NCBI GenBank assembly: GCA_000934665.2
Contig: KZ538814.1
Coordinates: 1-64,000, forward strand
Direction: 5' to 3'
Source of the DNA: Catajapyx aquilonaris
Taxonomy: Eukaryota
DNA: 64,000 nucleotides
Shown here: piece after piece, positions 893 to 55,021 of the stretch
Numbering within the stretch: the stretch's first letter is position 1
How the letters are laid out: each line of letters opens with the position of its first letter
Program-made: the position numbers and the translations under genes
The notes under the pieces: generated by a model
The model's input: only the letters and a program-made list of their open reading frames with translations
What the model was told of the DNA's origin: nothing
Database searches by the model: none

Positions 893-3890
893 TAATTGTT
901 TATATTATTTATTTGTTGTTAATTATTTAGCTCTTTCTCTCACTCTGTGAAATTATTCTCAAACTTATCATCAGTGCTAATGGGTATAAGATCTTCTCAC
1001 CCGTTTTTGTGAATTACGAGTACAGTACACAAATGTTGGACTGAAATCCCGGTGACGTCATATAGCATTCTTCAGGCATTTCGGACCATTGCCACACCAT
1101 GTAAGTTATTTCAGATTTCTGCCCACATCGCTGGCGCTGAATTATTCCACTCACCCCTGTCATCTTACCTGTAAGTGTATAGAGCACACAGTTCCATAAA
1201 CAGTTGCTTTCCAATGATGTGCTACATATACCGCATACTAGGAAACCGCTATAACTATAGTACGCTGATAGTACGATATGGCTCTTTCAAGCAGGTGAGG
1301 CAACTGTGGACAGAGTCAGGTAAATTTTCACCAATGTATACAGTATGCGGATGTGATGTATGTTCTGAAACGCATGGTATAGTTTTTCGTACATACGTAC
1401 ACGGCTCGCAGCAGTGCCGACGAGTAATAATAATGTGTTTCAAATGCAAGATTACTGATTTTTAAAAACAAGTCTGGTATAGTGTAGAACTGTAGATAAT
1501 GAAATTTAATGGCATTTTTAGATATCGTGTAATTTGGATTTGCAACATTTGTTGGAGGTTTTCATTCGACCAGAACCCCTAATTAGAATTCAAATTAATT
1601 TTAGAATGTGTTGAAACAGGATCATACACTGTATATTGTTCTTTTATAAATAACACCAGTAATTGTGATTTCCAAGAACCTCAGTAATTATATATTAGTT
1701 GTTATTTCTGAGTGCTTCAGTTTTCCTTTATTGCTTATTATAATTATAGTGACATCCTAGAATTGATATTTAATCGTCTAAAATTCGCGGAACCTAGTCT
1801 ATGCGGTATATGTGACAGGTAAATACCCAAAAGTATTAAAAAATTAATATCCGATAATTTATAGGAATTCGCAATACGTAACCAGAGGTTTTCTCTAAAA
1901 TCGCGTTGATACAATAAATAAATTGCTCCCTGGTGATAATTTATGATCATGCTCTCATTTGTCTCTCAAAGTTAAGCTGAATGTTTACCTATAGTAATCA
2001 GGTAGACTTCCAGAGTGAACTCCTGAGCACCAAAGGATCCTTTCATGTGGAAGTCTCCACGTCCTCGTTACTGATGAGATACACAGCATTACTCAAAGAC
2101 TTTGTTTACCATAATAATTATAATGGGTCTCGGACACAGTCTGCTATGCTTCCATCTCTTAAGCGACTGCCTGCTACACCTTAAAAAATTGCAGTTTAAA
2201 TTCAAGAATTTTAATGAAAAAAGCAAGGTTGCGCGAAGGGACACACACCTACCGGAATATTTTACACCTTATATCTGAAGCCCACTATTTTAGTAAAAAT
2301 GCTAACCTTTAGAGACCCCGTGACACTTGTACATAAAGTGATTCGCTGGTGCCCAAGAGTTCATCCCCTCATTGAAGTGTGTCTGAATCCGGCTCTGCTC
2401 AACGATATCTTTCAGTATTTTAACGTGTTATCCAATGACGTAATATGACACAGGCCTACTTCATGTTACATTACAGAGTAGCCTATATTTTAGAAGTCTA
2501 TTGTTTAGGCGAATGTGTCCTAAACTTTTTGATCACAATAAAGGTGTGCATAATTCTGGAAATCCACGTAAGACAGATGCATAAAAATCAGGCTAGAATG
2601 CAATCCATGTTTTACCAAATAACTTATTTCCCACTTCCCCCTCCATCCAAGATTTTTTCGCCACCCTGAGCGCCTGAGGACTATATACAGTACAATCGAC
2701 CATCCTCGTACCAATCAAAATCGAAAGGTCAGAAGTATAGCGGAATTTCTTAAAAGCTCTTTTTGGGTAAATTGGAACTTATAGGAAGTAGGACCGGTGC
2801 ATTTGCCATTGTGATACACCAGACAGACCCATAAAATACAAAGTGCCGGTGAAAATACCGTATATTCATTATAATATTACCGTATACTACTCGTACATGT
2901 GTGAGAGAGGTAGTCTACAATGCATTAGCTGTAATGTTCATATACCAGTGCAGCCTGAAGGTTGCAACCTACTTTTTTTCCTCGTAAAATTACATAGCCC
3001 GTGCGAAGACCCTGGGGGCAGAACAGCAATTAATAATCTCGTTGGGAATATTTCTATAATCACGGCTGTTTTCCTATATACACAGTGCTGGCTGTGACAT
3101 TGGTCTGGAAATTACATGATAAACATCATCACTTTCAGGCAGTTTTCTGGTGGTTTTTCTGCCCATGTTGTTTTTGCAATGCGGAGGAGTTGTGATCGTT
3201 ATTTTTTGTTACGCCGTATAAGCCTACATCTGTTTTTGAATATTAACATTAGTTTACAAATGGCATATCTCTGTATTACGCAGCGATATAGGCCTTCTGC
3301 CAGTTTTTTTAAAGTTATACAACAACAACCACCCAAACGAAACACGCCACAGTTAGGCCTAAAGAGCATTATTTAAGATTATTATTGCTATTATATCATC
3401 CATATGAGGAAGTTCATTAACGGTCTGCTATCAGAGTGACCACCAAGAAGCAGAAAGGTGAAATAAAAGTGGAGCAGCAATAACCGTAATGAAAACAACT
3501 GCACCAGCACACATATACGATCAGTTTCACTATAACTCTTGATAGAGGCACAGTGTAACTTTGAGTTAGGTACCTGTACCAAATGTGGTAACCATAAAGA
3601 TCACACATTTGCATACGATTGCCTATTACGTAAATTTAGAGAATTATTTCACTGCTTGGAAATTCAAAGCCTTTCATTCAACTATAAGTCAGAAAATATA
3701 TTTTAATATTAGTATGGAAGTGTTTTTGCCAACTCTTTAAAATACCCATTGCAAGTAGCTTAATTATTACATTTGCTTGTGTGGTAAATGAATCTTGCGT
3801 GCGGTTAAGATTTTTTTTTGCCAGGCTCTCTCATTATTATCTTCAAGTCTGCTGTATGAGATGTATTGATCTGAGACTACTAGCACAATT

Positions 3891-4138
3891 GAGGCGATCA
3901 GAGGAAACACGGCATATCCCAACCGGAGTTCATTTTGAGATAAACGGCTTTTTGTGTTGCAAGAGAATAGGATTTTTCATTGCAGACCAATTTTACAAGT
4001 GGAATATGTGAGCTTTGGCATATCCCAATTCATTTGGAACTTCAGCACATGAAAGGTAGATGGCAGGAGAGTAAAAAAGCACTACAATCTCATAATCGGA
4101 GGACGGTTGGGATATGCCGTTTTTCCTCTGAGCGCCTC
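3891..4138. mobile_element. MITE with ~34-bp TIRs and GAG termini (Sola-like)
   Basis: GAGGCGATCAGAGGAAACACGGCATATCCCAACC pairs with GGTTGGGATATGCCGTTTTTCCTCTGAGCGCCTC; the left flank is AATT. Confidence 0.7.
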
Positions 4139-4491
4139 TTTACTCGCCTAAATTAGAGTAATTTATAGGTTAAATTTTTATTAAGTTGTTACAATATTCG
4201 CATCTTAAATCAATTGTGATTTTTACATTCGGAGGCCTATAGCATTCTGCAGCACTGCGGATGGTCAATTTATTTTAACTAACTTATTATTACGTTTATT
4301 GTTGACAATATTCAATATAATAACCATTTGTTCATAATCCACAGGAATCCTACCGGCATGCGGCAGTGTAGTGCGAATTCGTAGACTTCTGGTTATTTGT
4401 TTTAGTAGCTACGAATTAATAGCTGAATGAATTTCTCTGATTCACTAGTGGACCACCAGTCCACCATGCCACAATAATTCACTCATCCATT

Positions 4492-4747
4492 GAGGGGTGT
4501 GGTGGAAAAAGGTGATAACCCTAATTTTTGTCATTTTTGACCTAACACCTATAGCAACTATGTAAAAGACACGACAAACAGTTTGGTATACTCCAAGTTC
4601 ACGTATCATGCACGAGATGGCCACACGGACTAGATCAAAACCCGCATTATCTATGATTTGTTAAGAGAATGCAAACTTCAATTCGCTCTCCTGAAAAATT
4701 ACACTTTTGTGGGTTATCACCTTTTTCCACCACAGACCACACCCCTC
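4492..4747. mobile_element. MITE with GAG termini (Sola-like)
   Basis: GAGGGGTGTGGTGGAAAAAGGTGATAACCC pairs with GGGTTATCACCTTTTTCCACCAC(AGACCAC)ACCCCTC; flanks are CATT and AATT. Confidence 0.7.
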
Positions 4748-5579
4748 AATTCAACCCATGATAAAATAGCACTCAGAAATTGATCTAATTATATAGAGGC
4801 TTTGTCAAAATCGCACTCTACTAAATTTCAATTTACATACTGTACTTCAATTTATTTACAGCTTTTTCAGTGCCACCCACCTAAAACTAAAGTAGGTTCT
4901 TAATAGCCCATGCACATAATCACGTAGATGATTCTCATAGATCAGGGGCCGTGACTGGAGTTCAGTCAATTGTAGAAAAAAAATCGAGCCGCAATAGGTA
5001 GGCTAACTTAGCAGGACATATTTATACACCACAATGAGGGTCAATTTCGGAAGATATCCGTATTGAAATGTATTGTCGAAGTTGATATAGTAGGCGATAA
5101 AAAAGTGCCCTCGTTAGAGACCCTGACCTCATTTGGCTTGTAGTGGTACAGTACCTTATAATTTATTAATAAGTTATAAGTTACAGGTTCCAGTTTGTAT
5201 TAGTAATCCCTGTACACTGATCATAATCATTTTATATTTAAGTATTCGTTGATAATGTGGGGTCCCTTTATCGAGATAAGGTGCTTTAATCAGGCAGTAG
5301 AGTAGGTCTATAAGTAACGTACGCACTTGTCTATTCACATGGCCTGCCTTTGACATTTAAAAAAATTGCGACTGGAGTTCCACATTCATGTGATAGACTT
5401 GCAGTTTTAAATTAACGTTTATTGAGGGGGGCCAAAACCACTTAGGCTCTCTATAGCATAGAGTACGTTTACATGGGACTAAAAATTGGCCTGACCCAGG
5501 CTTCCTTAGCAAGGCCATCGCCTTAGGTAGACCACCCGACCCAAAAGGCTTGGGCTGCGCCCGACAACGGATCAGATAA

Positions 5580-6637
5580 GGGGACGTCCACATATTACGT
5601 AACGGTATTTTTGGCCATTTTTGACCCCCTCCCCCCCCTCTGTAACGGGACCGTAACGATCTCCTGAACCCCCCCCTCCCCCCCTCCGTTACGTAACGCC
5701 TGCTATTTTTAAAATTTCGTGCTTCAGAACGAGCGCCACGTGTTTCATGTATATAAAACCAAGGCAATAATTTTAAGAATATGTTCACTTTAAAACTACT
5801 GTACTTGTGAAAGAAAAGAAAACTTTTGTACCGGTACTAAAATTTAATATAGGCCGAAATGATCTGTATTTCAGAAGATTTGTTTAAAAAGGGGAAGCCG
5901 AGGCGACTCAGGCTATGAGGCTCTTGGGAGGGTGGGGGGAGGGCGAAAGAAAGGGGGAGGGGAAGATAGTTTTTGGAGTGTGGGAGGAAATTTATAACAG
6001 GAGAACCCCGATATAAAACCCACGCAAGCGCGGAGAGAACTCCATCGAAACTCAACCCATATGGGAAATCCTTGGCCCAATCCGGGGATCGAACCTGGGA
6101 CCCCAGAGGTGGGAGGAGGCGGACTTTATAATATTAAACCACTACACCACCGCGTCGCCCGTATTTCATAAGAAAAGCGAAAAAAAATTAACGAACTACG
6201 TTACGTACAGGTGCGTATTTTTAAAGCTACAATATGGGCATGTTTTATATAAAAGAGAAAATAGTCAGAACAAAAATGTCATTTTTCTATGACTTTGAGA
6301 CCCTGGAGCGCAATAGGTATGGAATCAACAAGTAGTACAATACATGTGACTCACATAAATACCTTGCATAAAAATAGTGAGGTTGTCAAGTTCCTACGAA
6401 AAGTCTCAAAATAGCTTTTTTCGCACGTGTTTTACCGATTTGGACCACTGTGAGGCGTCACTCAGTGGGTAGCGGACGACGCAGCCACGCTGGCCACGCT
6501 GGCCACGCTGCGTTGCACTCGGAATATTTATACAGTGCGTTCAAATGCGTTACGTAACGGCTACCCAACCCCCCCCCCCCTCCCCCATGTAACGGACCGT
6601 CACNCTAAATCCCGTTACGTAATATGTGGACGTCCCC
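5580..6637. mobile_element. PIF/Harbinger (Tourist-like) MITE
   Basis: Perfect TIR GGGGACGTCCACATATTACGTAACGG; TAA TSD at 5577-5579 and 6638-6640; subterminal CGTTACGTAACG repeats. Confidence 0.85.
5879..6160 (-). mobile_element. tRNA-derived SINE with a V-domain-like body
   Basis: Minus strand: A box TGGTGTAGTGG, B box GGTTCGATCCC, then GTTCTCTCCGCGCTTGCGTGGGTTT..TTCCTCCCAC resembling the V-SINE domain. TSD GTATTTCAKAAGA at 5866-5878 and 6161-6173. Confidence 0.8.
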
Positions 6638-6736
6638 TAAGGCCGGTCTATCGTAGGCCCAGTGGCTACATGGGAGTAAACCGGTTCGCCTAGCATAGGC
6701 TAGGCCGATTTTTAGTCCCTTGTAAACGTACTCATA

Positions 6737-6931
6737 GACAAGAATGAGAGGGGAATATAGGTTTTTGAACTGTGGAAGGAAACTTGAGGATCCCGAGAAA
6801 ACCCACACGAACACTATGAGTAATTTATCGAAACTTGTTCTACGTTATAAGAAAAACTCTGTCCGGAGATAGAACGCGGGACATCAGAGGTGAAAGACTG
6901 TGGCACTAACCACTACATCACGGTGGCGCCC
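6737..6931 (-). mobile_element. Older copy of the V-domain-like tRNA SINE (its 3' end may lie at ~5405-5460)
   Basis: Minus strand GGGCGCCACCGTGATGTAGTGGTTAG...GTGTGGGTTTTCTCGGGATCCTCAAGTTTCCTTCCACAG aligns by eye with the 5879-6160 copy. Confidence 0.65.
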
Positions 6932-6971
6932 TTAAATTAGGTGCAAGTACTATGGACGCAAATAAATTAAT

Positions 6972-9231
6972 CCCTTCGCCCCCAGCCACCTAAAATCTAG
7001 GCGATGAGAATTCGACCGCAGAATACACCAGCAATATCGCCAAGATTTTCGTTTACACGCACTCTGAAGATAAAGACAATTAGACAATACAGGGTGTATC
7101 AGAGTCACGGGTCAAGCGCGCGCGAGGGGGTGGGAAAAATCGGCGATAACCTCGGTCAGTTTTATAAAACAATTAAAAACAAGGGAGTAATCGATTTTTG
7201 ATTACGGGGTGACGTCACGTCATTTCCGTTCGAATTGAGAGGCGCGGAAAGGCGAGTACGGTGCGTACAGCGGCTCTCTAGCCGTGCCGGTTGCACTGAA
7301 CAAGGCATGGGACCGGGCTTGGACCTCGGCAACCTGCCTATGCAACGGTGCACCGAGAAATGGCGGAGGATGTCGAGCACCGATGTCTCTGTACAGGCAG
7401 GAATGACAGCACGCATACCGCGTAGACGTCATCCTCATCGAAAAATCGCGAAAAACGCTTCTTTCGGTGGACAGACTGCTGCGTGAGGCCTGTCCCGGCC
7501 GGTACATTGCGAGGCAGACGAGATACGTCAGGTACGTACAGTAGTACAGTGTGTTGTACACCTGTACTGTAGTACAGCACTGCACTGGCTGGATAATGCC
7601 TGTGTACAGTAGTGTACGGTACTGTAACAGTACTGTATCGAACATCATGACAGGTGCACCTCTGACCGCACGTACCATGGCAATGGAGGGAGACGTTCTG
7701 GACATGGTAGCCCGATCAGCACCCGTGAAGTCGGTCGTAGAGTGCACAGCATTCATTCCAATGTGTGAAGGATCATCCACGACAGCATCCGAGCGAATGG
7801 GCGCGAGTTCCAGCATTTGCTGTAGTCACGGTATGCGTACTGACAGTACGCATACCAACTTCACGGGTGCTGATCAATGGGTCCATGGCTACCATGTCCA
7901 GAACGCCTTCCTAGATTTCCATGGTACGTACGGTACGAGGACGATGCACCTGTCATGATGTGCGATACAGTACTGTTACAGTACCGTACACTACTGTACA
8001 CAGGCATTATAGAGCCAGTGCAGTGCCGTACTACAGTACAGGTGTACAACACACTGTACTACTGTACGTACCTGACGTATCTCGCCTGCCTCGCAATGTA
8101 CGGCCGGGACAGGCCTCATGCAGCAGTCTCTCCACCGAAAGAAACGTTTTTCACGATTTTTCGATGAGGATGACGTCTACGCGGTATGCGTGCTGTCATT
8201 CCTGCCTGTATACAGAGACATCGGTGCTCGACATCCTCCGCCATTTCTCGGTGCACCGTTGCAGGTCGCGAAGAGGGGTTGCAGAGGCCATGCTTTGCGT
8301 GGGAAGGCGGGAGAGCATGAGAGCCGCTGTACGCACCGTACTCGCGTTTCCGCGCCTCTCAATTCGAACGGAAAGGACGTGACGTCACGCCGTAATCAAA
8401 AATCGATTACTCCCTTATTTCTAATTGTTTTATAAAACTGACCAAGGTTATCGCCACCTACGATTTTTCCCCGCCTCCTCGCGCGCGCTTGACCCGTGAC
8501 TCTGATACACCCTGTATATTGTTACAAATAATAACAACTCATAATAACAGTTTATGCTCTACCCGATGTAAGCCTATGTGTTGAAAACAGTTTTACTCGT
8601 CTGAAAGTCCCTGAATTAATTTCCCCAAAAAATCGCAGTAAAAACTTGAAATTCAAGTCCTACCGGCCAGCTTTAGGTTGATTTAATTTGAAATGCGTTA
8701 AAATATACGGGACATTTACCTTGACAACCGTACGAGACGAATCTGCTGAAATAGTCATATTTTGCAAGAATTTCATTAATACTCACCTGCGGCTTGCCTG
8801 TCACTTCAGAAGACTATCTAAATTTAGTTAATTCTCGCGAAGTACGGCGATTTCAGCAAATTTGTCTCATAAGTGTCTCAAGGTAGATACTGTATTACGT
8901 ATATATGAACCTATTTCATAATTAAATCAGCCTAACAATTGGCCGGTAGTACTTTAATGTCGAGTTTTTACGGCGATCTTCTAGGAAATTAATTTAGAGA
9001 CTTATAGACGAGTAGAATTGTTTCCAAAACATACAAGTACTGTCAATCGGGTAGTGCATGAACTTGTAAGTAACTTTATAGCTGTTATTATTTGTAAAAT
9101 ATCTTGCCCTTATCTTCAGAGTACGTACGTGTAAGCGAAAATCTATAGGCGATGGCGATATACAGTATAGCTGGTAGTACTTTGCGGTCGAGTTCTCATC
9201 ACCTAGATTTTAGGTGGCTGGGGGCTAAGGG
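6972..9231. mobile_element. Old foldback MITE with piggyBac-like CCCTT...AAGGG termini, interrupted by 7090-8514
   Basis: CCCTTCGCCCCCAGCCACCTAAAATCTAGG pairs with CCTAGATTTTAGGTGGCTGGGGGCTAAGGG. Complementarity resumes after the insert (8517-8695 vs 8913-9100). Flanks are degenerate TTAA. Confidence 0.75.
7090..8514. mobile_element. Young Tc1/mariner-type foldback element with ~640-bp arms
   Basis: TA-CAGGGTGTATCAGAGTCACGGG ... CCCGTGACTCTGATACACCCTG-TA; arms ~7090-7735 and ~7855-8514 are near-perfectly complementary. Confidence 0.9.
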
Positions 9232-10423
9232 CTAAGAATAACTTTAGAATTAGCAACTGTTTATTTGAAGACTAACTCCTAAGTAATCACCGGTCCTGAC
9301 ATCGGCATTGGAACATTAACATTTTAAATCAAATAGGCAAGCTTGAGCGAAGGGTTTCCTACCTCCAACATATACAATAGCCTGCTATAAGACTACTTCG
9401 TGCTTGAAGTACAGTAATTCAGTCACAGCTATGCAGTTCTCAAAATCTTACTCCTGATGTGCTATCAAGTGGCTTTTTACATGGCTTCAGCCCGATTTCC
9501 GTGTACGGGGTGGTGTGCTGCACAGGCCAAGGCGGGCAAGGCAGAGACCTTCTGGGTTATTAAACCCAGAACAAGTTTAAATTGCTGATTTGTTATTTTG
9601 CAACAATAGGGTCACATGCCCTTGTCGCAATTGTCTCTGATCTACTAGCTGCTGGAGTAAAGATGCCATAACTTCTACTGTGAGACTGCGGATGTGGGCA
9701 GTGCACCATCCTGTATAATTTACAGGGTGTTTTCAATGACTCAAGGCAACTCATGATTCAGTTAATGCCTCACCATGAGACTGTATTGGGGTGGTACACC
9801 ATCTTTTTGAAAGGCTGATTTTAAAAATGATGAAGAGTGATCGGAAAAAGCGCAACTCTCCATTATGTTGGGGAGGGTGGGGCAAGATGATGGGGACATG
9901 GGGTAAGACGGAACACCCCCTCTAAAAAGTCCGAGGCAAGTGCTGCTAACTTTTTTACAATACTGTCTTTGCACTTCCTGCATCTATATCAACCTTGCAT
10001 AGTTGCATAAAGTAATGGCTGCTAGCCCAATGTGGCTGTGGTCAGTAGGGGGCGTTTTCTCTGGTTTTAGGACCAGTTTGCTATTATTTTGCACCATCTT
10101 TCTTACCAAAATATTTGTATATTAATTACAGAAATGGATAGCCATGATATATTTCCCAAAAAGCGCAGTTCATGACGAGTCCATTTTGTCAAAAAATACA
10201 GTTTGTGCACATTTGCATGTTTGCTGTCGCATGGGTCAATTAAATGTCAAATGGCTGCTAGGGACATGATGAGGTACATCCTCATCATGCAGAAAAGTTA
10301 ATCTGGAGGGGAAAATTCGGGAAAATTAATGAAGATTTTGTTCCAAAATACGGTATATTCCAAGAAAATCGAAAAAATCAAGCTGCACTGATAAGAAAAT
10401 CCCTGATGCAGATGCTGGCGACT

Positions 10424-10558
10424 CAGAATGATGACACTCATATTTCTGTTCAGTGTGAATATCTATATTCCCAAAAATAATACCATGAGGTATGGGTGTC
10501 CTATGGAGTGTGTGGCTGGCAGACGAGTCCGACAACGAGACAGTTCATGTGTGTCTGA
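10424..10558 (+). pseudogene. Remnant of a C-terminal PHD-like finger of a pogo-family transposase
   Basis: Hand translation QNDDTHISVQCEYLYSQK*YHEVWVSYGVCGWQTSPTTRQFMCV* resembles the CxxC..W(I/V)xCxxC..FxC pattern; it lies inside the pogo-like TIRs. Confidence 0.4.
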
Positions 10559-10640
10559 CTTAATGAGCAAGTAAAACATGGTGTCCCATCTTGCCCCGCA
10601 TATGGGGAAAGATGGGACACTTGCACCCTTTTGGTTTTTA

Positions 10641-10939
10641 TTTATTATTTATTATTTATATTTATATTACCCCATTGGAAGAATCGGTGTTCTATTAGGG
10701 GGTGGAATACCACCATTTACCACTCAATTTTTTCTGAAATTGCTTCACACATGGATGGGGCCAGGATGGGGAAGGAAGGAAGCGGCGTGGCCTATTGTAT
10801 ACGGAAGCGACCCCGGAATTATCCTGGGGGGACCATGGAAAACCACAGAAAGCCACGGTCAGGATCGCCGGCCCCGGGAATCGAGCCCAAGACGGTTAGC
10901 AGTCGGACTCCTTAACCACTACACAAACATGCTTCGGTT
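10641..10939 (-). mobile_element. tRNA-derived SINE (Lm1/Talua-like central domain)
   Basis: A box TGTGTAGTGG, B box GGCTCGATTCC, body GGTTTTCC..AGGCCACGCCGCTTCCTTCC, A-rich tail. TSD ACCCTTTTGGT at 10625-10635 and 10940-10950. Confidence 0.8.
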
Positions 10940-14299: not shown

Positions 14300-14340
<41 letters not shown>

Positions 14341-40817: not shown

Positions 40818-40861
<44 letters not shown>

Positions 40862-40896
40862 NCTCTCTCTCTCTCTCTCCCTCTCTCTCTCTCTCT
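40818..40896. repeat. (CT)n microsatellite
   Basis: Direct reading; contains one N. Confidence 0.95.
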
Positions 40897-43329: not shown

Positions 43330-43639
43330 CTAGATGCGGCACCCGGCGTTGCCCGGGAAGAAATGAATGAAGGGAAAACACCTGCCAGTAACCCAGTCAA
43401 CTGTCTGTCTTTCTGTCTGTCCGCCCACCAATGCCATCTGTGGTCCTCCTACTCCAACACCTTCAACCTCTCCCGCCTGTATAACATAACGCCAACCGTG
43501 ATTTGCCTGCCATCTGTCGTGAACCCCCAACACCTCCATCCTCTCCGTCCCTGGGGGTGGAGCACAGATGGCAGGCAAATGACGGTTGGCAGGCGGACAG
43601 ACAGACAGACAGACTCACAAACGGCTTTATTTATATAGA
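43330..43639 (-). mobile_element. Complete non-autonomous Helitron (310 bp)
   Basis: Minus strand: A|TCTATATAAATAAAG 5' end, (CTGT)n, a 3' hairpin CCCGGGCAACGCCGGG, then CTAG|T. It is inserted between A and T with no TSD. Confidence 0.85.
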
Positions 43640-43728
43640 TGTGCCCTCTAGGTGATTATGCAGTATTTAGTAATATTTTGAATTATTGGTCAGGTTAATA
43701 TAGATACGTACGACCTGCTTCATCAATT

Positions 43729-44122
43729 CAAGTAGGCCTCGTTTTGCGTAAGGGTTAGGTTCCAGCAAAACAGGATCGTAATTAATATGAAAAGTCGAAA
43801 TACGAGGCCTATACTACTTGTACCTGTTTAAATATACCCTGCCACAATGCATTACAAAAAACAAATGAAGCACCCATTATGGAAACACACCAACTCCAAC
43901 TGTCTGGGCATGGAGTTGGGGTGTTTCCATAATGGGTGCTTCAAATGAAGCGCCTATAAAGTGTGCTGGACTCTGAGGTGGTGCAGCGTGCAGGGATGTG
44001 TAAATGTTTCGATTTTCTGTCATTTTCAAAGAATGTTCCAAATTTGTCATTTTGCAAGGTAATTTTTAAAAGGTTCATGTGAAACGTCGTAAAATGGAGC
44101 GTCGTAAAACGGGGCATTTTTG
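43729..44122. mobile_element. Decayed Tigger/pogo-like MITE
   Basis: CAAGTAGGCCTCGTTTTGCG ... CGTAAAACGGGGCATTTTTG-TA, with repeated GTCGTAAAA. Confidence 0.45.
43867..43942. mobile_element. 76-bp hairpin mini-MITE with an AAAT TSD (Sola-like)
   Basis: GAAGCACCCATTATGGAAACAC..CAACTCCA pairs with TGGAGTTG..GTGTTTCCATAATGGGTGCTTC; AAAT at 43863-43866 and 43943-43946. Confidence 0.75.
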
Positions 44123-47100
44123 TATAAACAAGAGTTCAGTATACCATATACGCAATACTATATAGTATATATACTATCTTGTAGATGCAATCCATGCATC
44201 CAGAGTCTGGCCAGAGCGTCTCCGTGGACGTCTAAAGCGATGACATGACAGCATTCCGGCAGAAGATATGACGTCATTACTGATTCCTTGGTGTGAAATA
44301 TCACTGCGCATATTGATGCGAACACGGTAGGATGTAGGAGAAGGAATGTAATAAAATTCTATTGCGTCAGCTTCTGTCAAGATTAGGTTGCGCCACCACA
44401 TCGTGACTTACACTGCAGTTTAACACAGTTAGTTGAAACGAACGAGTTTTTAACCAGTGACATTGAATTTAAAAACTGCGATTAAATACTGTACCATAGC
44501 ATTAATACTTTGCTATCGCTGGAAATTAATGAGTTATGTAGGCCTAATAAAGTTTTATTCAACATTGCTGATAAATACAACCAAAAATTAATTACTGGAC
44601 CTGTGTCAGCATTACAAACATCATAAATATTTATTACAATCTGATAAAGTGATATATGCTACTGATTTCAAATGGTTTAGAGTTCAGGGTTGCAATATGA
44701 CATTTTAATCCCTTTAGGCAATTGTTGCCATATTTGTTGTAAGCATTATTTTGTTCCTTCTATTCAATTCTATTCGTAATTACTTGCAGAATTCTATATG
44801 CAGCAGGTGTGTATTCAAAATAAATTATTATTCGTGAGAGGATTGCAACTTTTTTCACTCGGTAGCACTTGACTCAATCCCAATATAAAAACATAATGAT
44901 GATGATCATTAGACTTTTGGCTACAAGACGTTATAATAATGATCGTGATTGCTGACCTATGCCACAAAGTTGTAGACGTAATTATGAATAAGTTAATGTG
45001 GACATGGAGTGTCTGTCAGAGCAGCCAAATACCATTGAATTCTTTGTACCAAGGAGAACTGTCCGGTTGATGAAAGTCACTGCCGATTCTGAGATTTGTG
45101 TCAACAACAGCAAAAAAAAATTGTTAGTCGACATCACAGGTGAACAGCACAATTATTTAGGTGTCAAACATTCATACAAGTCAGGATATTACTGACCTTT
45201 CTGTTGCCGTCACTGCTCACTGGTCCCAACACTCCGAGAGGCAGCAGACGATGAACAATCCGTTTCTTGTATAATAGTGATACAGGTGATTATTTTGGAA
45301 TTTCACATGAAAATGTTTAGCGTCCTCTCTCTGCTGCACACAACTTGAGCACACTGAGTCAAGTTTGCTCACAAAAAATATTTCACTGTCAGCTTCTTTA
45401 TACTCTTACATTATATTTCTATTTGACAGTCTAACTCGATCAGGATTAATGTTATTTTCCGTCAAGTAGAAACATTAGACAACCCCCGATTATGAGTGTA
45501 TTTGATATCTCTTTGACTTAAAATAAGCGTTGCGCCTGGTTGCGTCTGATCATGAAAGATTTTGGAAAGCAAGAATTTGACTGAGATTTGTAGTGTAATG
45601 TATTCGACCTGGTGCAGCCCGCCGTAAAGTAGGCATATCTGCTTGGTAAGAACTTTGAAAGTGACGACAACCCAATAACTAAAGGGCGCTAATTGCTTTC
45701 GGAGAGAGGCACGTCTTCCACACTATAGGGACATTAGCACGTTTCTAAACCCTTGGATGTTAAGCACCGATTATGGCGAATATAATAGTGATGAATAAAA
45801 CTGTTCATGCTTTCAAGCTAAGTTGCGCTTTTTTTGGTTCAGTACTCTATCAAGTGTAGTCCCAGAGAGACAAAAAAAAACAAATCCGTTACAAACATAA
45901 TCCAACTTTGTATTTAAAGGTCATGACTATAGCTTTGTATTTTTAAACTCTTCTTCAGTATGAGTCCATGCTGTAGTGTATTGTAAAATGTTGCGAATAG
46001 TGAACAAAGGTGCTCCGGTTATATTTTGCTAACCATCCAGAGATAAGAATAACATATATTTTTAAATCTCAGCAATGAATGAGCATCGTAAAATGTGTTT
46101 CTGTATATGTTTCTGAAGAGCACGCCAACTAGTCCGGGACGTTATTTTCCAGAAGGTGTAACTGTAACATGTAGTCACTGTGAGGGTGCTCCCAATACTC
46201 GATACAACTTTATTTTAAAAATATCACCATCCGCTAACACATAATGAGATGTAGTAGATCACTAACTTGTAAATATTTCATGTTGTCTTATGGCCAGTCG
46301 CATTATCGATAGTAGGCCTAATTGAGAACAAAAAAAAATGCAGAAATGTGAATAACATGGATCAACCACTTGTTCTGAGGTTATGCATTGAAGTGTTGAT
46401 TTTAGCAATACACATGGTAGTACCGTATATTGATTACAATAAGTTGCCAACTTCTACATATGGGGCGAGTTAAAGTAGATTTATCTCTTGCTGCCGCGCA
46501 TGCGCGTTGCAACTGGCAGATCTTGATGTGCTTAAGGGGAGAAACGTGCAATGTATAACTGTACCTTGAATAATCTTGCTATAATAATACAACAAACAGA
46601 CAGCAAATATTTTTCCGGAATTCTGAAGATGCAGTGTTTGTAACGATTCTGACCGTACTATCGATACGTGCATTTAGGCTGTTTAGTATAGGCTACTAAC
46701 TAGAAGGATCTCTTATGTTTGCGAGACAAGGATAGTTAGATAACATCACTTCATATTTGAGATGAACAGAAGAGAGTATTATACGTATGCAGTGATAGGT
46801 TATACTGCTTATTGCTCCCAGAGGCCATTACATGAACTAATCCTGCGGCAAAGACGTGTTCACTTCGATAATGACCTGGGGAATATATTCGTCTTTCCTT
46901 TCTCTCTGAGGCATTTAAGTGATTATTATTTGCTCTATACAGAACTAATGTAGGCAAGAGCAGACATATAGGCTTGAGTTTGTGACGCCTGGAGGTGGGA
47001 CCATTGTTACATGGATTCCGTGCTGCATAGAATCGTGTGCGTGGAACTTCCGAATTTCTGGAAGGCCTCTTCCATGCCAGGCTGTGTAGTAGGCCTATAC

Positions 47101-48487
47101 CGTGTGTTTCGGAAGTCAGCATACAGACAAAGAAGATGCAACTTGAGTAAGGAAAGTCTGCTTCACTAACATACAAAACATTTTGTTTTTTAAATGTTTA
47201 AACTGAAAGCTTATATGACTATTCTAGTGATTTCTTTTCAAATGTGGAGTCCATAATTCAATTTTTAATAAGTGAAGAAGCTATTTTATGCCATCGTGGC
47301 TGATGTTGCCACTATCAAATTAATATTTACAATATCAGAGTGACAGCTCCCACCCTAAATGACTGAAAAAATTATAGGGTGATTTCCTATTAATTGCTTT
47401 ATTCGATTTCCTTTAAAATGTGAATTATTACCAATTGCTTGATGAAGCCGTGAAGTGATTGTGTTTATAATAGCCATTTGTTTTTTTGTAACGTTCCACA
47501 TTACGTTGGTTATGCATAATGGTCAACTGAGGCAGTACATGGCTGCTTTCCCCCCACTAGCCTTCTATTAGCGTGTTTGCTATTAGTGGAATCCTCCAGT
47601 CACATTCTTGATTGTAGAAGCCCTATAGTAGCTGTAACATGATGATAAGACGCTAATCATGGACGAGAACGTGTTTCATAATTATTGTATTGTATATTCT
47701 ACACTATAGGTTCTATTATGCTTTCATATGAAAAATGATTATGCGTAACCACGAGTAAATGTAATCCCAGAGGTGTACTCTTCAACGGGAAGTGGCCAAC
47801 ACCTCCGTTTGTTCTAAAGGGAATTTGCCTATGAATACCATATGAATGCAAAACGATCAGTATCATACGGCAGTGATGTCGAGATGAATTGAGGTTTGAA
47901 TCCTGCATTATTCCTTATGGAATTTTAAAGTTCTTCTCGGGGATGCTTACATCTAGTCTTGACCATCAGATTAGATCACACAATACCTAAATCCATTTTG
48001 ACCAAAATGTGAGAGTGACCACTAATTTGCTTGCATTTGAAGTCTTCATTTGAATATGATCACCACCATAGATAAGTTTCAATATAATGTCGTGGATGCA
48101 TTCTGAAAACTTGGAGGTGCAAGAGGGCTGGTCCAATAATTATTAAGGTACTACATACTCTTCAGATTTCCAGTAAGTGGAAAGTAGGCCCTATATTATA
48201 GTTACTTTCAGCAGTTGAAAATAACGTGATTGGAAAATAAATAGAGCGGTTAAATGAATGAAGACATCCTTCCTTTTGTATGAAAATAGGTATAATCAGT
48301 CTACACTGCTAACAGTGATATTCATCAGGGTCACATATTAATTTATGATTCGAGTTTTAACTATGACGTAAGCTATAACTATGCTATGTAAATGGCGTAT
48401 CGTTCGCACGTCATTCCCAACTTTTGCCATTTTAATTACTGACACATAAATGAATTGGTGATGCCTAACGTTGTAGGGTCTGCCAAA

Positions 48488-48628
48488 AATGTTTCGACCC
48501 AACGTATCCTGCGGTTATACAACCATCAGTACTTTACCAAAGGGAACGTTTTATTTTTTCTGACTTTCACCTTTTCGTAAGTGCTGACGGCGACGTGGAG
48601 TCAGGATACCATTTTCCGAAACGTAGTC
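48488..48628. repeat. Decayed inverted repeat with hammerhead-like CTGAYG...CGAAAC motifs (Penelope-like)
   Basis: Left arm reverse complement CCTTTGGTAAAGTACTGATGG..CAGGATAC..CGAAACATT aligns with right arm CCTTTTCGTAAGTGCTGACGG..CAGGATAC..CGAAACGTA. Confidence 0.45.
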
Positions 48629-49374
48629 TATATTATTCGTACAGGGATTGGCCCATAGACGATACTGAGTAGAAAAAAGCAGGTAATATTTTAAAATAGA
48701 TGCAGTTCACAAAATAATTATTCTTGCGTCGAATATTTTTAAAATGATGGCCGCTTGACAATAAAGTATTATGCAGTGTTCCTATTGAAATGTTGGTTTT
48801 AGTTTTAGTGAGTAATATTTTGGTACTAAGCTGCTCATTATTAATGTCACTTTTGAATAGATCATTTTCATGATTATTAAAGCATTAACTATACTTATAC
48901 TTATTCTTATTAGGTTGCATAGTCCCATCCTTTTTAACGGCTGAAATGGGGTCTGACCTGAAAAATGGGTTCTGTCATGGACCTGAGATGCCAATTCGGA
49001 AATTCATTGCAATTCACAACTTGTGCAGGTGATTCTATTGGCAGCTAATACTTTTGATGGCTACTAAAAGTAACTACTCCAAAGTAACTGCTTCGAAATA
49101 AGTCAGCAAATAATACACCTTGTAAGTTACCGTATATTTAAAACTGACGTAGTGCACGAAGAAAAATAATATGCAATTTTCCTTGGAATTTTCTCTCTGC
49201 GCAACAATGTACATGGATATGCCGTGGTATTATTATCCATGAAACACGCGCGTGTTTATTATAAAAATAGATAAAATGACGAAATATAACTCATTTTTCG
49301 CAACAAAGAAGTGAAATCCTCATTCTATGATAATAATATATTATTGAAATTGATACATATTAACAAAAAACAAA

Positions 49375-49447
49375 GGGTGGAATTTTCGTCCCACTGATAG
49401 TTACTGCTAACTTAGCAGTAACTATCAGTGAGATGAAAATTCCACCC
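49375..49447. mobile_element. 73-bp hairpin mini-MITE
   Basis: GGGTGGAATTTTCGTCCCACTGATAGTTACTGCTAA-C-TTAGCAGTAACTATCAGTGAGATGAAAATTCCACCC. Confidence 0.85.
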
Positions 49448-50826
49448 AAAATATTTTGATGTATTTTATGTTAGATATACGCCGCGCCGCCCTGCCACCC
49501 TTCTGTGACATCAGTACCCACAATAGGTCACTACCTCTGTACTATTGAGTTTCTTATGGCATGATTCACAAAATGTTGACGATTAAATTACACTTCCAGC
49601 AGTTTTATTAGGCACAAAGGGTGTCCCAATTATTGAGATGTCTGTTTCAGTTACAGATTTATTTGTACTAAGTACTTATAGGCCTACTGGTATTTCCAAC
49701 ATTTTCTTAGAGAAACTATAAAAATACTCGTAGGCTATAAGCTGATTTTTATTCAGTTGAAGAATTCATTTGGGCTCTGAAATGCAATGGATTTCAGGGC
49801 TTTAGAAATCTCAAGTAGGCCTAATGCAGATTGACCCACTGATCCGCGGTCAAAGGTTGAACATTTTTTTCTGCCCGACGGACATTTCCACATTTAAAAA
49901 ACTATGTTCCACATGATTTACAGCTGCTACTTTTTCGATAGGCATGAAAGCAACTGTTCGAAACTAACTACTTAATAATAAGTGCATAAGTGCAAAAAAT
50001 TTCAAACCTGCCGCTTTATGCATAATACAAATTTAATATACAATACTGATATTAGTATAGTTTATATATAGGCTACTGATTTTAATCAAATCTGTTAGTC
50101 AAATTGAGAGACTGTAAGTAGGCCTACGCAATAGCTTTGTATTCTGTATTGATTCATTAGGTTGCATATACTTCCAACCAACGCCAACTTTTTATAAATG
50201 ACATCAAGCGTGTATGTCAATAGTGCCGCGTAACCATAAACCTGAAGATTTATTTAATTTTAACAAATGTGTCACTTTCAGTTTATACGCTACAAATCCT
50301 AGAATTTGTAAGAGAGATTCCGTGCCTGTAAGATCCAGCAGGTTATAGTAATATTTTTACCACTTCTATTTGCCTTTCACCATTTGCAGGCTGCGATCAA
50401 TAGAGGTCTATATAGCAACTTTTTGAAAATGAAATATTTTTTCTTGCCAAAAAAAAGAAGTGATATATACGAATGGTGCCTGGACGACTTCCAGCAGTAA
50501 TCAGACTTGTCACGATTTCGCTAAACGTATAAAAAGAAACTGGAAGCTTATCACCACGGTTTATATTTTTTTTCCATCTCCATCCTCTTCTTGTAATAGT
50601 GCTCAGGGGACTAATTAATTAGGGAGTTGAGCATTCGGTGAGAAGCAAGACAATGAAGGAAGGGACGGCTCGTTTCAAAACTTTCACTGCTGGCAGCCTT
50701 GTAATCTCCTTAGCATACGGGCCATGAAAAGAAGAGGGCTAAGGGGTGGGTTGGTAGGGAGACGGGGAGGGGAAGTTGAACATTTGTCTGGTGCCAAGGA
50801 GAGTGTGGTGGTCCAACAGGACCAAC

Positions 50827-50870
50827 CAGGGTCGTAGCCAGGGGGTGGTTTAGGTGTTCAACCCCCCTCT
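50827..50870. mobile_element. hAT-like MITE left end
   Basis: CAGGGTCGTAGCCAGGGGGTGGTTTAGGTGTTCAACCCCCC; the partner end is uncertain because of the gap at ~51135. Confidence 0.4.
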
Positions 50871-52193
50871 CATACATGAAAAAAAAGTTTTCATAAATGT
50901 GCCAAAATGCATATTTTTTTTTATCCTTCTGATTCAGGGTGGGCGTCTCTGTATATAAAGTTCTATCTTGAAACCAATCGACTTTCATCACTGTTTCCTT
51001 CAGGTGCGTTATCGCAAATCTTGTTTCGCCACCATAGGGACAGCAAACGGCCTCAATTTAGTTAGCATCAGGATTCTCACACCTCTCCTGTCATTTTATG
51101 GGTGGTGGATAGGAAGAGAAATATCTTCTCCCCCNNNNNNNNNNNNNNNNNNNNNNNNNNNNNCCCCCCCCCCTCTATTCCTTTGCACCCTCTATGTTCT
51201 GTATAGTATCATGTCAAGGGTCGGACACGGTTCGGCCGGGACTTATGTGCTGGAAACGCAATCCCTTAGCCCCAGTTCAGTGCGCTTCGGTCAGCCGTTG
51301 GTTTCTGACCTTTCATATGCAAATCTGGCTCAGATGAAATTCTAAAGGAATGGAACTGCGGGATTAGCAGATGAAAATCCTTGTCGTTAGTCCTTCGGGG
51401 TCGTGCATCACTCCAAGGACTTGCTCTTGATCTGATGAATGCTAAGGACAGTTTACCAAGTTTGTCAGGTGAGGGTGTGAAAATGTCGACTGGTAAGAAT
51501 CGCAAATAATAAAAGAATAGCGGCACAAAAATGCGTCCGTGAGAAAGAAATTGGATAGAAAAGGGGCAAAAAAAACGATTAAGAAAACCTGATTCCACCG
51601 GCGCCAAATTAAAGATATCAAATAAAAGGGTTTTGCAAAACGTTGTGTTGGAATTATTTGTGACGTGATCGCTGCAATAATGTTCTTTTAATATATTCAG
51701 ATTACCATGAATTAACGTTCAGTAACCAATAAACTGTAAAAAAAAACATTTCTTGTAACATTCTTCTGTTGGTGCTTTCGTCTCTTGATACGAACGAAAA
51801 TAACCTGGAAAAGATTCAGATAAAATGCAATTTTGTGTCAGAGCACAATATGTAGAGGACAGATATGAAATTAACTTGTTAGTAGAATAATGATATACCG
51901 GTAAGCTTAAAAGTGCTATACTGCGTATAGGCCTCTCTGATTGCCATGTCGGGCGTACTTGACAGTTCTGACTGTGAGGCTGAAGAATAAAGAGGTGGCA
52001 CACAGCATGATTGTTATATGACTGTATACTGACAACCGACTGCCCAGATAGATATTACTATGCATTTAAGATACCCAGTCATATATCGTACAGGATGGTA
52101 CAAAATTAGCACATTTCCCATAGAGGACGGAATTGTAAGAATAAACAGACAGCCGCCGGAAAGTATAAAATTTTCGGGCTTGGTATTTTAATA

Positions 52194-52285
52194 CAGGGTG
52201 TTCCAAATATCCGGGTCACTTTTGGATAACTGTTATCACCCGATAGCAGTTATCCAAAAGTGATCAGGATATTTGGATCACCCTG
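52194..52285. mobile_element. 92-bp hairpin derivative of the 28666-29412 MITE
   Basis: TA-CAGGGTGTTCCAAATATCCGGGTCACTTTTGGATAACTG..CAGTTATCCAAAAGTGATCAGGATATTTGGATCACCCTG-TA. Confidence 0.9.
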
Positions 52286-52784
52286 TATATAGCTGATAAC
52301 CTTGATCTGCTTTTAAATAATTCCCCAATGCACACTTATACTGTGTTGAAGATTTCCTGTAACTATAATGAAGAGAATGATTGGAGGTGGTCACAGAAAG
52401 GCCTTTGAGTAGGGTCGCAAGTTATCAGGGGATTGACTCCTCGTCTCATTAGACCTAACAAGGTGCAGACGGCGTAGTGCAAGCAGAGAAACCCCTCAGG
52501 TGTGATTCGTTGGCTGCAGCATGCTGGCAATCCCTCAATCTTTAGGACGGGAAAGATGATGAGCTCTCATGGACAGTATCGTAGCCTCTTCTACATTGGC
52601 AAACTTTTATACAAGTTTGCCCGGGAAGTAATTACTGAAAGCTCGTGGAGAATTTTGATTACTTTTCGAGGCATTCTTCATATCCCCCTTCTCATTCTGA
52701 TATAAAGAAGCGCTTAGGTTTGCATCTCCAGTGTTCCAGAACCGTATATTGAAAGGAGCTTTAGGTTCAGTGTCTTGTGTTTAG

Positions 52785-52788
<4 letters not shown>

Positions 52789-52836
<48 letters not shown>

Positions 52837-52868
52837 GTTATTATTATTATTATTGTTATTATTATTAT
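52789..52868. repeat. (ATT)n microsatellite
   Basis: Direct reading. Confidence 0.95.
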
Positions 52869-55021
52869 AAATACCCATTAATATTTATCAATATTGGTTC
52901 TCTTGGGGGTTTATTCGATAGGAAAATATTATATTGTTGTGGAACTTATTTATCAGGTGTAGTAGTGTGTGAATAATTTGTTGCATGTGTTGGAATCAGC
53001 AGTGTGTTACGAGAAAATTTACGCGACATATCAATTATTTTTCCACTTGGCATCCTTCACCCTATCTGGATGTCGAGTTCGGAACTGCGATAGTGGAAAA
53101 TTCCAATTAGGCCTCGAAGTCAGCTATATTTGACTTACCTTCACATGCCCATATTATAATAGGCCTACAGGATCTACAAAGGGCCACAGCAGCCCCGGAA
53201 CTTGTTAGTAAACTATATTATGATATAACCATGGTTGGCTCAGCAGAGCTGTAAATGTCAGATGTCATACTAGTAGAATTGTGGGTTGTTTTGTACCATA
53301 CAGTTTCCTCGCAATAATACGGTGTGAGACAAGCGGAAAAGATGATTTTTTTGGTTTCTTCCCTAGAGAATTTCCACCTTCGCACTTCGAGCTTTGATGG
53401 GCTTCAGATCCGTTCAGGTTGTTGAGGAAACGACTTATTCTGCTGCGTAGTTCTAATGTCAGCTTTTCCTAATTGCCTCTTTTTGAAAGAACACACAAAA
53501 AAAACCATAAGGCAAGCTCCTGACAGTTGGAAGACTCACGTTAACCTTAAATAATGTGGATAACTTTTTCTTGCGTCTATAACATGCAATAGATTGTACC
53601 GCATAAGGGTAATTTTTATTAAGCATTACTTTTAACTGCTGGATTTTACGAGCAGAATGGTGTTACAGAGGCTTGACTTTAACTTCTGCAGGCCTGAGTT
53701 CGATCCCTGGGTCGGGAGGAAAGTTCTTTTGTGAGGAAAGTGCTTATGTGGGTACATTACCAAATGCTTCAATACATACGGTATATTTTCTTTCATTCTA
53801 AATATTTACGTATACAGTATAAGGAAACGTACAGTACAATAAATTGTATACATCATTTTAATATTTATATCGTGTCGTTTTTTGTTAACCAACTCTGCAT
53901 ATGACTCCCAAGTGAGATTCAACAGGTAAAGTAAAGGTTTCGAAAAATACTTTCGAGCAAGTACACCATGGCAGCATGCCGAATTAATCGCCAATAACTC
54001 CTTCCAAATTGGGCGATTCCCTTCTGTTAATGTGTAATAAAATATGTTAGTGCTAGAAAGATTAGCCAGATGCGAAAAAGAAGAACACAAGCAAAAAAAA
54101 AAATGGTATAAGGCACACAGAAGGGTTCATCTTCATTCCACTTGATTAAAATATAAGCATATTCTGCATTGTTTTGCCATTTGCATAGGAAATATTAATG
54201 TCTTGGTGCGCCAAAGAAGAGATGGGAAGGACAAATAGGAGAAGTAATCAGTTGAAATGCTAAGCAGACATCCTGCAAGCAGAGTCTTGGGACTTGCTGA
54301 GACTAGACCGTGAAGGAAATTCCACTTGGGAGTCTGCAAGTCGGCAATTTGAATTCGAAATTCTGCACATTCACTAGGCACAAGCCTCGTTCGTCCGGAA
54401 GCCATAGCCCTAATGTGCACTCTCTACGCTTTCGTCACTTTTCCGCCGCATAAAGAGGCTAACTAATTTGGAATATAAAATACTTATATCCGAGTTACAC
54501 AACTATAGTACTATAAGTTGCTCAAGAGTCAACTAGAAAGTTTATTGATGAGTTGATAATTTTATCATCCGGTAGCAGTGGGCATTAAAACGTAGAGAGT
54601 CTATTACACTTCGGACTGCTTCTGTCGAGGAGCACTTTGCTACTAATAGGCCTTATTTAAGTGATAAAATAAGATGCGTAGTGTCGTACTTACATTATTG
54701 AGACTATTGATGCCACATACAACTTGCAGAATACTTTCATTTTAGTGGAATAAACCTAAAGCGGTAAGTTCCGATTTAATATTTTGTGCTCTTATATTAT
54801 ACAGTGTTTTGCGCTGACTCGCCTTACAAGCCTACAGCAAAGATACAGTACCAGTTGTTTGCAGTATTAAACTTTTGCATGAGTAATAATGGCCAGGAAT
54901 AGTGGGTGTGGTATAAAATTTGCCAGTAAATTCCGGAGTGCACTGGGGATAAAATGCAGAATAACTGAAAAACAGGCATATTTTTTGCTATTGAATATGT
55001 CGATGAAGTTGTATTAATATA

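Follow-up and report, generated by a model that had tools for sequence, protein, structure and literature searches.

Why should one short palindrome recur in place after place of otherwise unrelated DNA? The question is raised by the first 64,000 nucleotides (positions 1 to 64,000 of the forward strand) of contig KZ538814.1 of Catajapyx aquilonaris (assembly GCA_000934665.2), a stretch of what looks like non-coding eukaryotic DNA, referred to here as the window, in which the octamer TAGGCCTA occurs exactly 15 times. We propose, with a probability of roughly one half, that the octamer is a Minos-like excision footprint of +6 bases, left by an element that inserted at TA and carried GGCC tips, a donor that we infer from its scars. 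An initial reading of the sequence by eye (the original prediction) had already taken the octamers for scars of a TA-targeting element with GG...CC ends, and the statistics of short words lend this indirect support, whereas the comparison of repeat arms, on which that reading also drew, is ambiguous. The proposal is supported because TA proves to be a special frame for enriched words, because TACWGTA and TAGSCTA (W being A or T and S being G or C) are enriched together with the octamer, because CAG-tipped elements reside in the window and because the sites scatter in a Poisson-like manner; it gains further support because scar-type units are chained on shared TAs, because GGCCTCG is preceded by TA and because TACWGTA differs between paired repeat arms.

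Over-representation of the octamer

The octamers are listed below; here and in later lists no strand is assigned unless one is given.

3354..3361, TAGGCCTA octamer, exact match, unique flanks
12557..12564, TAGGCCTA octamer, exact match
15438..15445, TAGGCCTA octamer, exact match
22875..22882, TAGGCCTA octamer, exact match
31158..31165, TAGGCCTA octamer, alone among the 15 in having a paralog within the window (left arm 29446-29555), alignment ambiguous
36183..36190, TAGGCCTA octamer, followed 10 bases downstream by the TA of the miniature inverted-repeat transposable element (MITE) at 36201-36386
38169..38176, TAGGCCTA octamer, exact match, crossed by read contigs
39186..39193, TAGGCCTA octamer, exact match, crossed by read contigs
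44539..44546, TAGGCCTA octamer, exact match, crossed by read contigs
46313..46320, TAGGCCTA octamer, exact match, crossed by read contigs
47090..47097, TAGGCCTA octamer, context TA-G-TA-GGCC-TA-TA
49679..49686, TAGGCCTA octamer, opens a cluster of five sites
49816..49823, TAGGCCTA octamer, within the five-site cluster
50119..50126, TAGGCCTA octamer, within the five-site cluster
53160..53167, TAGGCCTA octamer, with the TAGGCCTCG word of 53108 lying 52 bases upstream

All 15 starts given in the original prediction are exact matches, and the window holds no further copies. In 100 dinucleotide-preserving shuffles the octamer was found 0.91 times on average and at most 4 times, none of the shuffles reaching 15, in agreement with the predicted chance expectation of roughly one; the GC content assumed for that estimate, about 38%, was too low, the measured value being about 40.6% (0.36 to 0.45 in 4-kilobase (kb) bins). 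Under Markov models fitted to the window the expectation is 1.2 sites for order 3 and 3.84 for order 4, and the naive models of order 5 and order 6 give 10.35 (P = 0.10) and 13.15 respectively. Within 64 kb the naive test at these two orders is circular because the octamers themselves make up the higher-order counts, supplying 15 of the 38 TAGGCC and 15 of the 42 AGGCCT. When the octamers are excluded from training, order 5 expects 3.46 sites (P = 4e-6) and order 6 expects 2.68, so that enrichment over a fifth-order background, the check suggested with the original prediction, fails in its naive form and holds once the octamers are left out. With low-complexity words removed, the most enriched 8-mer of the window is TAGGCCTA, along with its own extension AGGCCTAC, and AGGCCT is flanked by T...A in 15 of its 42 copies and by any other pair of bases in 5 at most. 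The over-representation is real and unusual.

The 15 octamers lie in 15 distinct contexts, 12 of them without a second match in the window. The best-matching pair among the 30 octamer flanks agrees at 11 of 20 positions, within the range of 10 to 14 of 20 found in 200 sets of random-position controls. Since the flanks are mutually unlike, the octamers do not form one repeat family, and the idea that they are the termini of a single dispersed repeat was rejected on these grounds. Contigs built from the reads of four runs span all 10 octamers of the region 34001-54000 at an ordinary depth of 17 to 40 and without a difference. The four read sets share one sample and one study and were probably used for the assembly itself, three of them being marked as a possible source. 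Not being independent, they show only that the reads contain the octamers; the lack of any insertion or deletion at these 10 sites is silent on polymorphism among individuals.

The TA frame and co-enriched words

Words of the form D-X-rc(D), in which a dinucleotide D and its reverse complement rc(D) enclose two to four bases X, were scored for all 16 dinucleotides against an order-2 background with two repeat-rich stretches masked. With three enclosed bases TA-CAG-TA ranks first (50 observed, 11.5 expected) and TA-GCC-TA second (23 and 5.2); with four, TA-GGCC-TA (15 and 0.69) is at the top behind two microsatellite words, TA-CGTA-TA (12 and 2.9) and TA-CCGG-TA (4 and 0.49) also being ranked; and with two, TA-CG-TA is third (36 and 13.5). 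Among the 16 possible frames, it is that of TA in which the most enriched non-microsatellite words sit, and the octamer is framed by two copies of TA, as expected of a footprint of the Tc1/mariner type. Between two TAs, CAG and CTG rank above every AT-rich triplet, and GGCC ranks above TTTT and AAAA.

By the shuffles TACWGTA (TACAGTA or TACTGTA) is found 60 times against 9.14 expected and is thus more frequent than the octamer; its contexts are mostly unique, except for 10 copies within the inverted repeat of 7400-8200. TAGSCTA (TAGGCTA or TAGCCTA), which is the octamer minus one central base with both TAs retained, is found 23 times against 6.72, none of 100 shuffles reaching 23. The Minos-type words TACGAGTA and TACTCGTA (TA-CGAG-TA, the tips of Minos being CGAG) are likewise enriched, with 8 copies against 1.5. 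Variants one base longer than the octamer, TAGGGCCTA (29529-29537, described with the repeat arms below) and TAGGCCCTA, occur once each, and together with TAGSCTA they make up the kind of spectrum of alternative products that a Tc1/mariner-type footprint would be expected to show.

137..60963, TAGGCTA/TAGCCTA, one-base-shorter variant, 23 copies, enriched over shuffles and with a G bias at -1; starts 137, 2479, 4999, 6696, 14432, 18622, 25163, 27415, 27490, 27606, 28131, 33233, 33592, 36407, 40431, 42404, 42839, 43160, 46689, 49731, 50069, 55556 and 60957
48185..48193, TAGGCCCTA, one-base-longer variant

The octamers and these heptamers share a preference in their immediate flanks. Position -1, symmetrised over the two half-sites, is G in 15 of 30 octamer half-sites (P = 3e-4) and in 25 of 46 heptamer half-sites (P = 4e-7), against 20.5% at any TA, while C is nearly absent there from both and T is found in 5 of the 30 octamer half-sites. 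At TACWGTA the bias is weaker and unlike that of the other two words (G in 43 and A in 42 of 120 half-sites), a distinct flank preference that fits a different transposase.

Taken together the 38 octamers and heptamers occur about once per 1.7 kb with a Poisson-like scatter (variance/mean 0.76 to 1.02 in bins of 0.5 to 4 kb), and one cluster was found. Scar-type units are moreover chained on shared TAs: 100 order-3 simulations gave 0.45 overlapping doubles on average and never more than 2, and the window has 10. These occupy 8 loci, two of which are opposite arms of a single repeat, and by our arithmetic about 4.2 doubles would be expected from an independent succession of the 145 single units.

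49679..50126, cluster of three octamers and two heptamers in less than 450 bases of unique sequence (P = 0.0042, 5000 random placements)
33224..33244, longest chain, TA-CG-TA-CTG-TA-GCC-TA-CTG-TA, four scar-type units sharing TAs

Some further words of the same general form were noted. TACGTA has 39 sites against about 13.5 to 18 expected, and ATACGTAT and TTACGTAA have 7 each against 1.7 and 1.2, although CpG is depleted overall (observed/expected 0.75 in the window). The product of a Tc1-type 2-base stagger, TACATGTA, has no copy in the window.

Resident CAG-tipped elements

At least six TA-flanked elements whose tips read CAGGGT... reside in the window, and by their tips they would be suitable donors for footprints of the CWG class.

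7088..8516, TA-flanked CAGGGTG-tipped element (Tc1/mariner-type MITE), putative donor type for TACWGTA
17080..17508, TA-flanked CAGGGTG-tipped MITE
19048..19997, TA-flanked CAGGGTTGGGC-tipped element of 950 bases, containing the DUF4817 helix-turn-helix open reading frame (ORF) remnant 19168-19407
23863..24878, TA-flanked CAGGGTGGAC-tipped MITE
36201..36386, TA-flanked CAGGGTGAC-tipped MITE of 186 bases, lying between octamer 36183 and heptamer 36407
52192..52287, TA-flanked CAGGGTG-tipped MITE of 96 bases

The 80-residue ORF at 19168-19407 (+ strand) matches the DUF4817 helix-turn-helix, a domain of the sort that mariner-type transposases carry, with E = 3.6e-5 and 23.8 bits (cut-off 22.6); it is probably the remnant of the N-terminus of a transposase, and its nearest Atlas clusters are mostly from arthropods. 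The element at 7088-8516 has nearly perfect arms of about 700 bases and a centre (7530-8070) rich in GTAC, TACAGTA and TACTGTA. At the MITE of 36201-36386 the octamer lies 10 bases off one end and the heptamer 21 bases off the other (36183-36413), and the stretches between the element and these words are loosely inverted-repeat-like, which could reflect nested ends or local re-insertion. Target duplications of the NuwaI kind (CWG) were considered as a source of TACWGTA and rejected: in the resident elements CAG and CTG face each other as an inverted and not a direct repeat, and are therefore part of the terminal inverted repeat (TIR).

Proposed mechanism of scar formation

If the octamer is a repair scar left after excision, the donor would have been a cut-and-paste element of Tc1/mariner-like type that duplicates TA, with ends GG(C)(C)...(G)(G)CC. 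Its transposase would cleave the non-transferred strand 2 to 4 bases within each element end, and the donor flanks would retain TA and a short 3' overhang derived from the tips. Were GGCC tips cut 4 bases inside, a stagger like that inferred for Minos, the overhangs would be self-complementary, and their annealing and ligation would yield a uniform TA-GGCC-TA, a gain of 6 bases. From a 3-base stagger (GGC overhang), pairing of the two bases GC with a one-base fill-in would again give TAGGCCTA, and full overlap with a central G:G mismatch would give TAGGCTA or TAGCCTA, in parallel to the C(A/T)G that arises from CAG tips; blunt joining after a 2-base stagger would once more give TAGGCCTA. Nearly all repair routes would thus converge on the octamer, and its uniformity would thereby be explained. 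The identical process acting on the resident CAG-tipped elements would produce TACAGTA and TACTGTA. This scheme presupposes three things: a single TA stood wherever an octamer now lies, some family of donors with GGCC tips is or was present, and cleavage was staggered in the manner described.

Comparison with known systems

Several described systems resemble parts of this scheme. The footprints of Tc1/mariner elements consist of the first or last 2 to 4 nucleotides of the element, and TACAGTA/TACTGTA is the canonical footprint of Sleeping Beauty (PMC6943129, in part). The likeness extends to the arrangement of TA, element tips and TA produced by joining of 3'-overhang ends (PMC6943129, in part), to the enrichment of the Sleeping Beauty footprint word itself noted above and to the presence in the window of elements in which TA is followed by CAG. 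The octamer differs in having a GGCC core in place of CWG, in being +6 and not +5, and in having a donor with matching tips that is a candidate only; its abundance is also far above any description that we found.

Minos, whose excision leaves a footprint of 6 base pairs (PMC3386967, in part, citing Arca et al. 1997), is alike in that four terminal nucleotides remain with a duplication of TA (PMC3386967, in part), which places it in the +6 size class, a size that for the octamer follows from the structure of the word only. The tips of Minos, in contrast, lack self-complementarity and yield either of two products where GGCC tips would give one, and no Minos-like transposase was found in the window. 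Excision of Stowaway MITEs and plant mariners leaves a small duplication in place, along with short pieces of the element ends (PMC4561436, in part), as is proposed here for the octamer; such events are described locus by locus and not as a word that dominates the k-mer spectrum, and the TIR tips differ. That the octamer is a footprint of Tc1/mariner type from an inferred donor family is plausible, and its unusual abundance would be of wider interest if it extends genome-wide.

A broader claim, of which we are somewhat less sure, is that the genome preserves a dense fossil record of cut-and-paste transposition. Fixed scars, counted as TA-CWG-TA, TA-GGCC-TA, TA-GSC-TA and TA-CGAG-TA, would occur about once per 0.6 kb, outnumber the elements and top the k-mer spectrum, and TAGGCCTA would be the signature of a GGCC-tipped family that is nearly or wholly gone and is seen through its scars. 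Neutral theory allows scars to outnumber resident copies when the product of the excision rate and twice the effective population size is above 1, and such a record would be a case in which excision and re-fixation do so. Short TA-framed words would then register excisions that are invisible to ordinary repeat annotation, could serve to count past transposition and would make transposon families without intact copies detectable; they could also show the choice of repair pathway in the germ line, the ratios of full, mismatched and trimmed products being a direct readout of germ-line end joining. About 0.8% of the window would be scar (about 100 excess words with 5 to 6 added bases each, by arithmetic), a load sufficient to distort k-mer composition models and motif discovery.

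Comparison of repeat arms

Comparison of the window with itself gave 38 segment pairs with 8,732 aligned columns and 53 rows of insertions or deletions of 4 to 14 bases, most events being counted twice since both arm orientations are reported.

29529..29537, TAGGGCCTA, one-base-longer variant, 9-10 bases missing in the partner arm
26624..26630, TACTGTA in one arm only, TATA-CTG-TATA against TATA, +7, well-aligned context
9161..9167, TACAGTA, missing from the paired arm 6978-7073, +7
8888..8894, TACTGTA, paired arm shorter by 5 bases, context of 73% identity

Only one of the 15 octamers, that at 31158, has a paralog in the window, namely the other arm of the inverted repeat 29433-31225. The original prediction read this pair as AAG-TA-TGA against AAG-TA-GGCCTA-TGA and concluded that GGCC and a duplicated TA had been added. 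MAFFT instead aligns TAGGCC to TATGACC and places a gap of 4 bases further along; the two alignments cost about the same, so the predicted addition is one possible alignment and not the one that MAFFT prefers. A similar insert had been claimed near 29529, and TAGGGCCTA does sit there where the other arm lacks 9-10 bases, but the difference relative to CAT(G/A)ACC in the partner arm is +9 and not the +7 of a TA duplication. A change of +6 at TA is thus not established for the octamers by direct evidence from the arms.

TACWGTA fares better, being present in one arm and absent from its partner at two to three sites: cleanly at 26624, where the arms show 4 mismatches over about 73 aligned columns, at 9161 and, in a context of 73% identity, at 8888. 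For the +7 events at 26624-26630 and 9161-9167 the candidate causes are a duplication of 4 bases, an extra TA or a slippage deletion. Other small differences between arms include TAGG-like strings, TAGGTG at 8460-8465 and ATAGGCGA at 9145-9152, the latter resembling a local duplication.

Candidate GGCC-tipped donors

The original prediction saw no intact donor in the window, and TIR scans and ORF searches confirm this. The word GGCCTCG has five copies, every one preceded by TA, and the resulting TAGGCCTCG is found 5 times against 0.20 expected, with none of 100 shuffles reaching 5. Their upstream flanks differ, and the sequences that follow them downstream form two loose groups, GGCCTCGAA(A/G)TCA and GGCCTCGT(A/T)T. 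By their sequence these five words are candidate donor tips, to be taken as leads and not as proof.

40100..40108 (+), TAGGCCTCG, candidate TA and donor tip, no partner found
43733..43811, candidate mini-element TA-GGCCTCGT...ACGAGGCC-TA of 79 bases with a perfect terminal inverted repeat of 10 bases
53108..53116 (+), TAGGCCTCG, candidate tip, matching 57229-57237, 4,130 bases away, at 12/14
57229..57237 (-), TAGGCCTCG, candidate tip, partner of 53108-53116

The 79-base candidate at 43733-43811, bounded by one pair of these words, has a fold z of -2.9. Three further TAGG...CCTA pairs that match at 11/14 are likewise leads only.

Observations that weigh against excision

A number of results count against the excision proposal. 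The sole octamer with a paralog, 31158, yields no clean +6. The clean TACWGTA events (26624 and 9161) are +7, from TATA to TATA-CWG-TATA, where the canonical footprint is +5, and as read from the arms they could equally be slippage deletions, their polarity not being fixed. TACWGTA flanks, with A in 40% and G in 33% at -1, are unlike those of the resident CAGGGT elements, which have A at -1 in 78% and T at -2 in 67%. TAGCTA, which as a trimmed product would be the counterpart of the enriched TACGTA, is itself depleted (10 against 19.9). The naive order-5 model absorbs the excess of TAGGCCTA, and the cluster of five sites in 450 bases would suit a cluster of binding sites as well. TA also shows a generic self-correlation of 1.3- to 1.4-fold at distances 5 and 6, which is far too small for the 4- to 20-fold excesses of single words.

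The donors are a second difficulty, and no polarised empty site was found in the window either. TIR scans of the window found no repeated family of TA-flanked GG...CC elements; the scan for TAGG...CCTA gave, at a threshold of 13/16, two pairs that each lie within longer inverted repeats; neither the 79-base candidate nor any other TAGGCCTCG end has a second copy in the window, only about 10 to 14 bases being shared; and the 53.0-57.4 kb region, searched as 67 ORFs of at least 35 residues, contains no transposase, its two weak Pfam matches lying far below the cut-off. The density implied, about 100 excess TA-X-TA words per 64 kb, is very high, and among the papers listed in the literature search we found no report of such a density of scars or of a genome-wide enrichment of excision scars. 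The same search found no TA-duplicating element with GGCC tips, and TAGGCCTA itself appeared, among the matches listed, in primers or unrelated motifs.

Alternative explanations

The main rival, which we regard as unlikely, is that (A)G-TAGGCCTA-C is the selected binding site of a dimeric protein such as an architectural, insulator, silencing or small-RNA-promoter factor. TAGGCCTA is a perfect palindrome that carries additional information at -1 (the G of 15/30 half-sites), the longer AAGTAGGCCTA occurs 4 times, and both the one cluster of five sites and the failure to find a donor in the window would be natural on this view. A palindromic site is expected, however, to keep a fixed spacing between its half-sites, and TAGSCTA, co-enriched with the same flank bias, alters that spacing, which is an argument and not a proof. 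Outside the one cluster the scatter is even, at about 1 per 1.7 kb with variance/mean near 1, and binding would leave unexplained why TA is a special frame for the unrelated cores CWG, CGAG, CCGG and CG. Nor is there a definable gene or promoter context, since the only one of 126 ORFs of at least 75 residues to pass Pfam is a transposase-type helix-turn-helix. Were binding nevertheless the cause, the octamer would be a very dense protein-binding motif of an arthropod-like genome.

Slightly less probable again is that the octamers are scars of another origin, either remnants of element tips after an internal deletion or a gap repair that aborted, or the products of some other break-repair process with a preference for TA-rich sites, for instance templated insertion or the opening of hairpins. 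The clean +7 events have TATA repeats on both sides and are also an outcome expected of deletion by slippage between direct repeats, TAGG-like strings do appear in small arm differences (at 8460 and 9145), and the TAGGCCTCG word that lies 52 bases from octamer 53160 could mark a truncated element. Hairpin-type additions, as in V(D)J recombination and the hAT mechanism, copy the local flank, though, and would not be expected to give GGCC at 15 unrelated places, while the recurring cores match known forms of Tc1/mariner footprint.

A donor of PIF/Harbinger type, with TIRs that start with GG and a TWA duplication as in Tourist MITEs, whose TIRs begin with GGCC, is improbable. The PHIS group (PIF/Harbinger, ISL2EU, Pangu and Nuwa) does share AT-rich targets and TIRs that often start with G or GG, those of PIF/Harbinger usually starting with A or G and those of Pangu with AG or GG (PMC4482050, in part), and TAGGCCTT and AAGGCCTA are mildly enriched in the window (5 against 1.8). 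TWA would require T at -1 and A at +1, though, and the octamers have T in 5/30 and G in 15/30 half-sites, so they do not carry a TWA duplication on both sides. In the extract of PMC4482050 no PHIS group duplicates TA, the duplications being TWA, AT, ANT, CWG or TNA, and excision of the mPing type is usually precise (PMC4561436, in part).

Two other candidates were rejected on the pattern of the word: a head-to-head junction of telomere repeats, TTAGG-CCTAA, would need T at -1 and A at +1, with T at -1 in 5/30 half-sites, and the 8-bp target site of hAT elements, nTnnnnAn, does not fit. Least probable of all is that higher-order composition, or an artefact of assembly or library, gave rise to the enrichment, for which the naive expectations of 10.35 and 13.15 and the single sample behind all four read sets, possibly the assembly source, could be cited, but 2.7 to 3.5 sites are expected when the octamers are left out of training, contigs of ordinary depth cross 10 of 10 octamers in 34001-54000 without a difference, and an artefact would not be expected to recur at fixed loci at about 30-fold depth.

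Other features of the window

Searches for genes returned little. Rfam at gathering thresholds gave no match in the window, ARAGORN gave 0 transfer RNA genes and Pfam gave no match on the 8 ORFs of at least 150 residues; on the 126 ORFs of at least 75 residues the DUF4817 match described above was the one above the cut-off, and one zinc finger fell below it.

A short repeat of very high copy number lies at about 35300-35520, where contig depths add up to as much as about 6e5 (at 35460), unique sequence having about 30; a related copy lies near 10789, and the repeat is not called by ARAGORN or Rfam. When metagenomes were scanned for a 26-base piece of the repeat with the highest copy number in the window, 0 matches resulted. 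The paralogous segments 13620-13700 and 14171-14250 each contain short interstitial telomere-like arrays, (TAGGG)n and (TTAGG)n, and TAGGTTAG is enriched because of them. Taken with the CpG value and the arthropod clusters nearest to the helix-turn-helix remnant, these arrays hint weakly at an arthropod. Runs of G or C of at least 8 bases are also frequent, and give 63 overlapping GGGGGGGG/CCCCCCCC words when both strands are counted, where an order-3 model expects 5.7.

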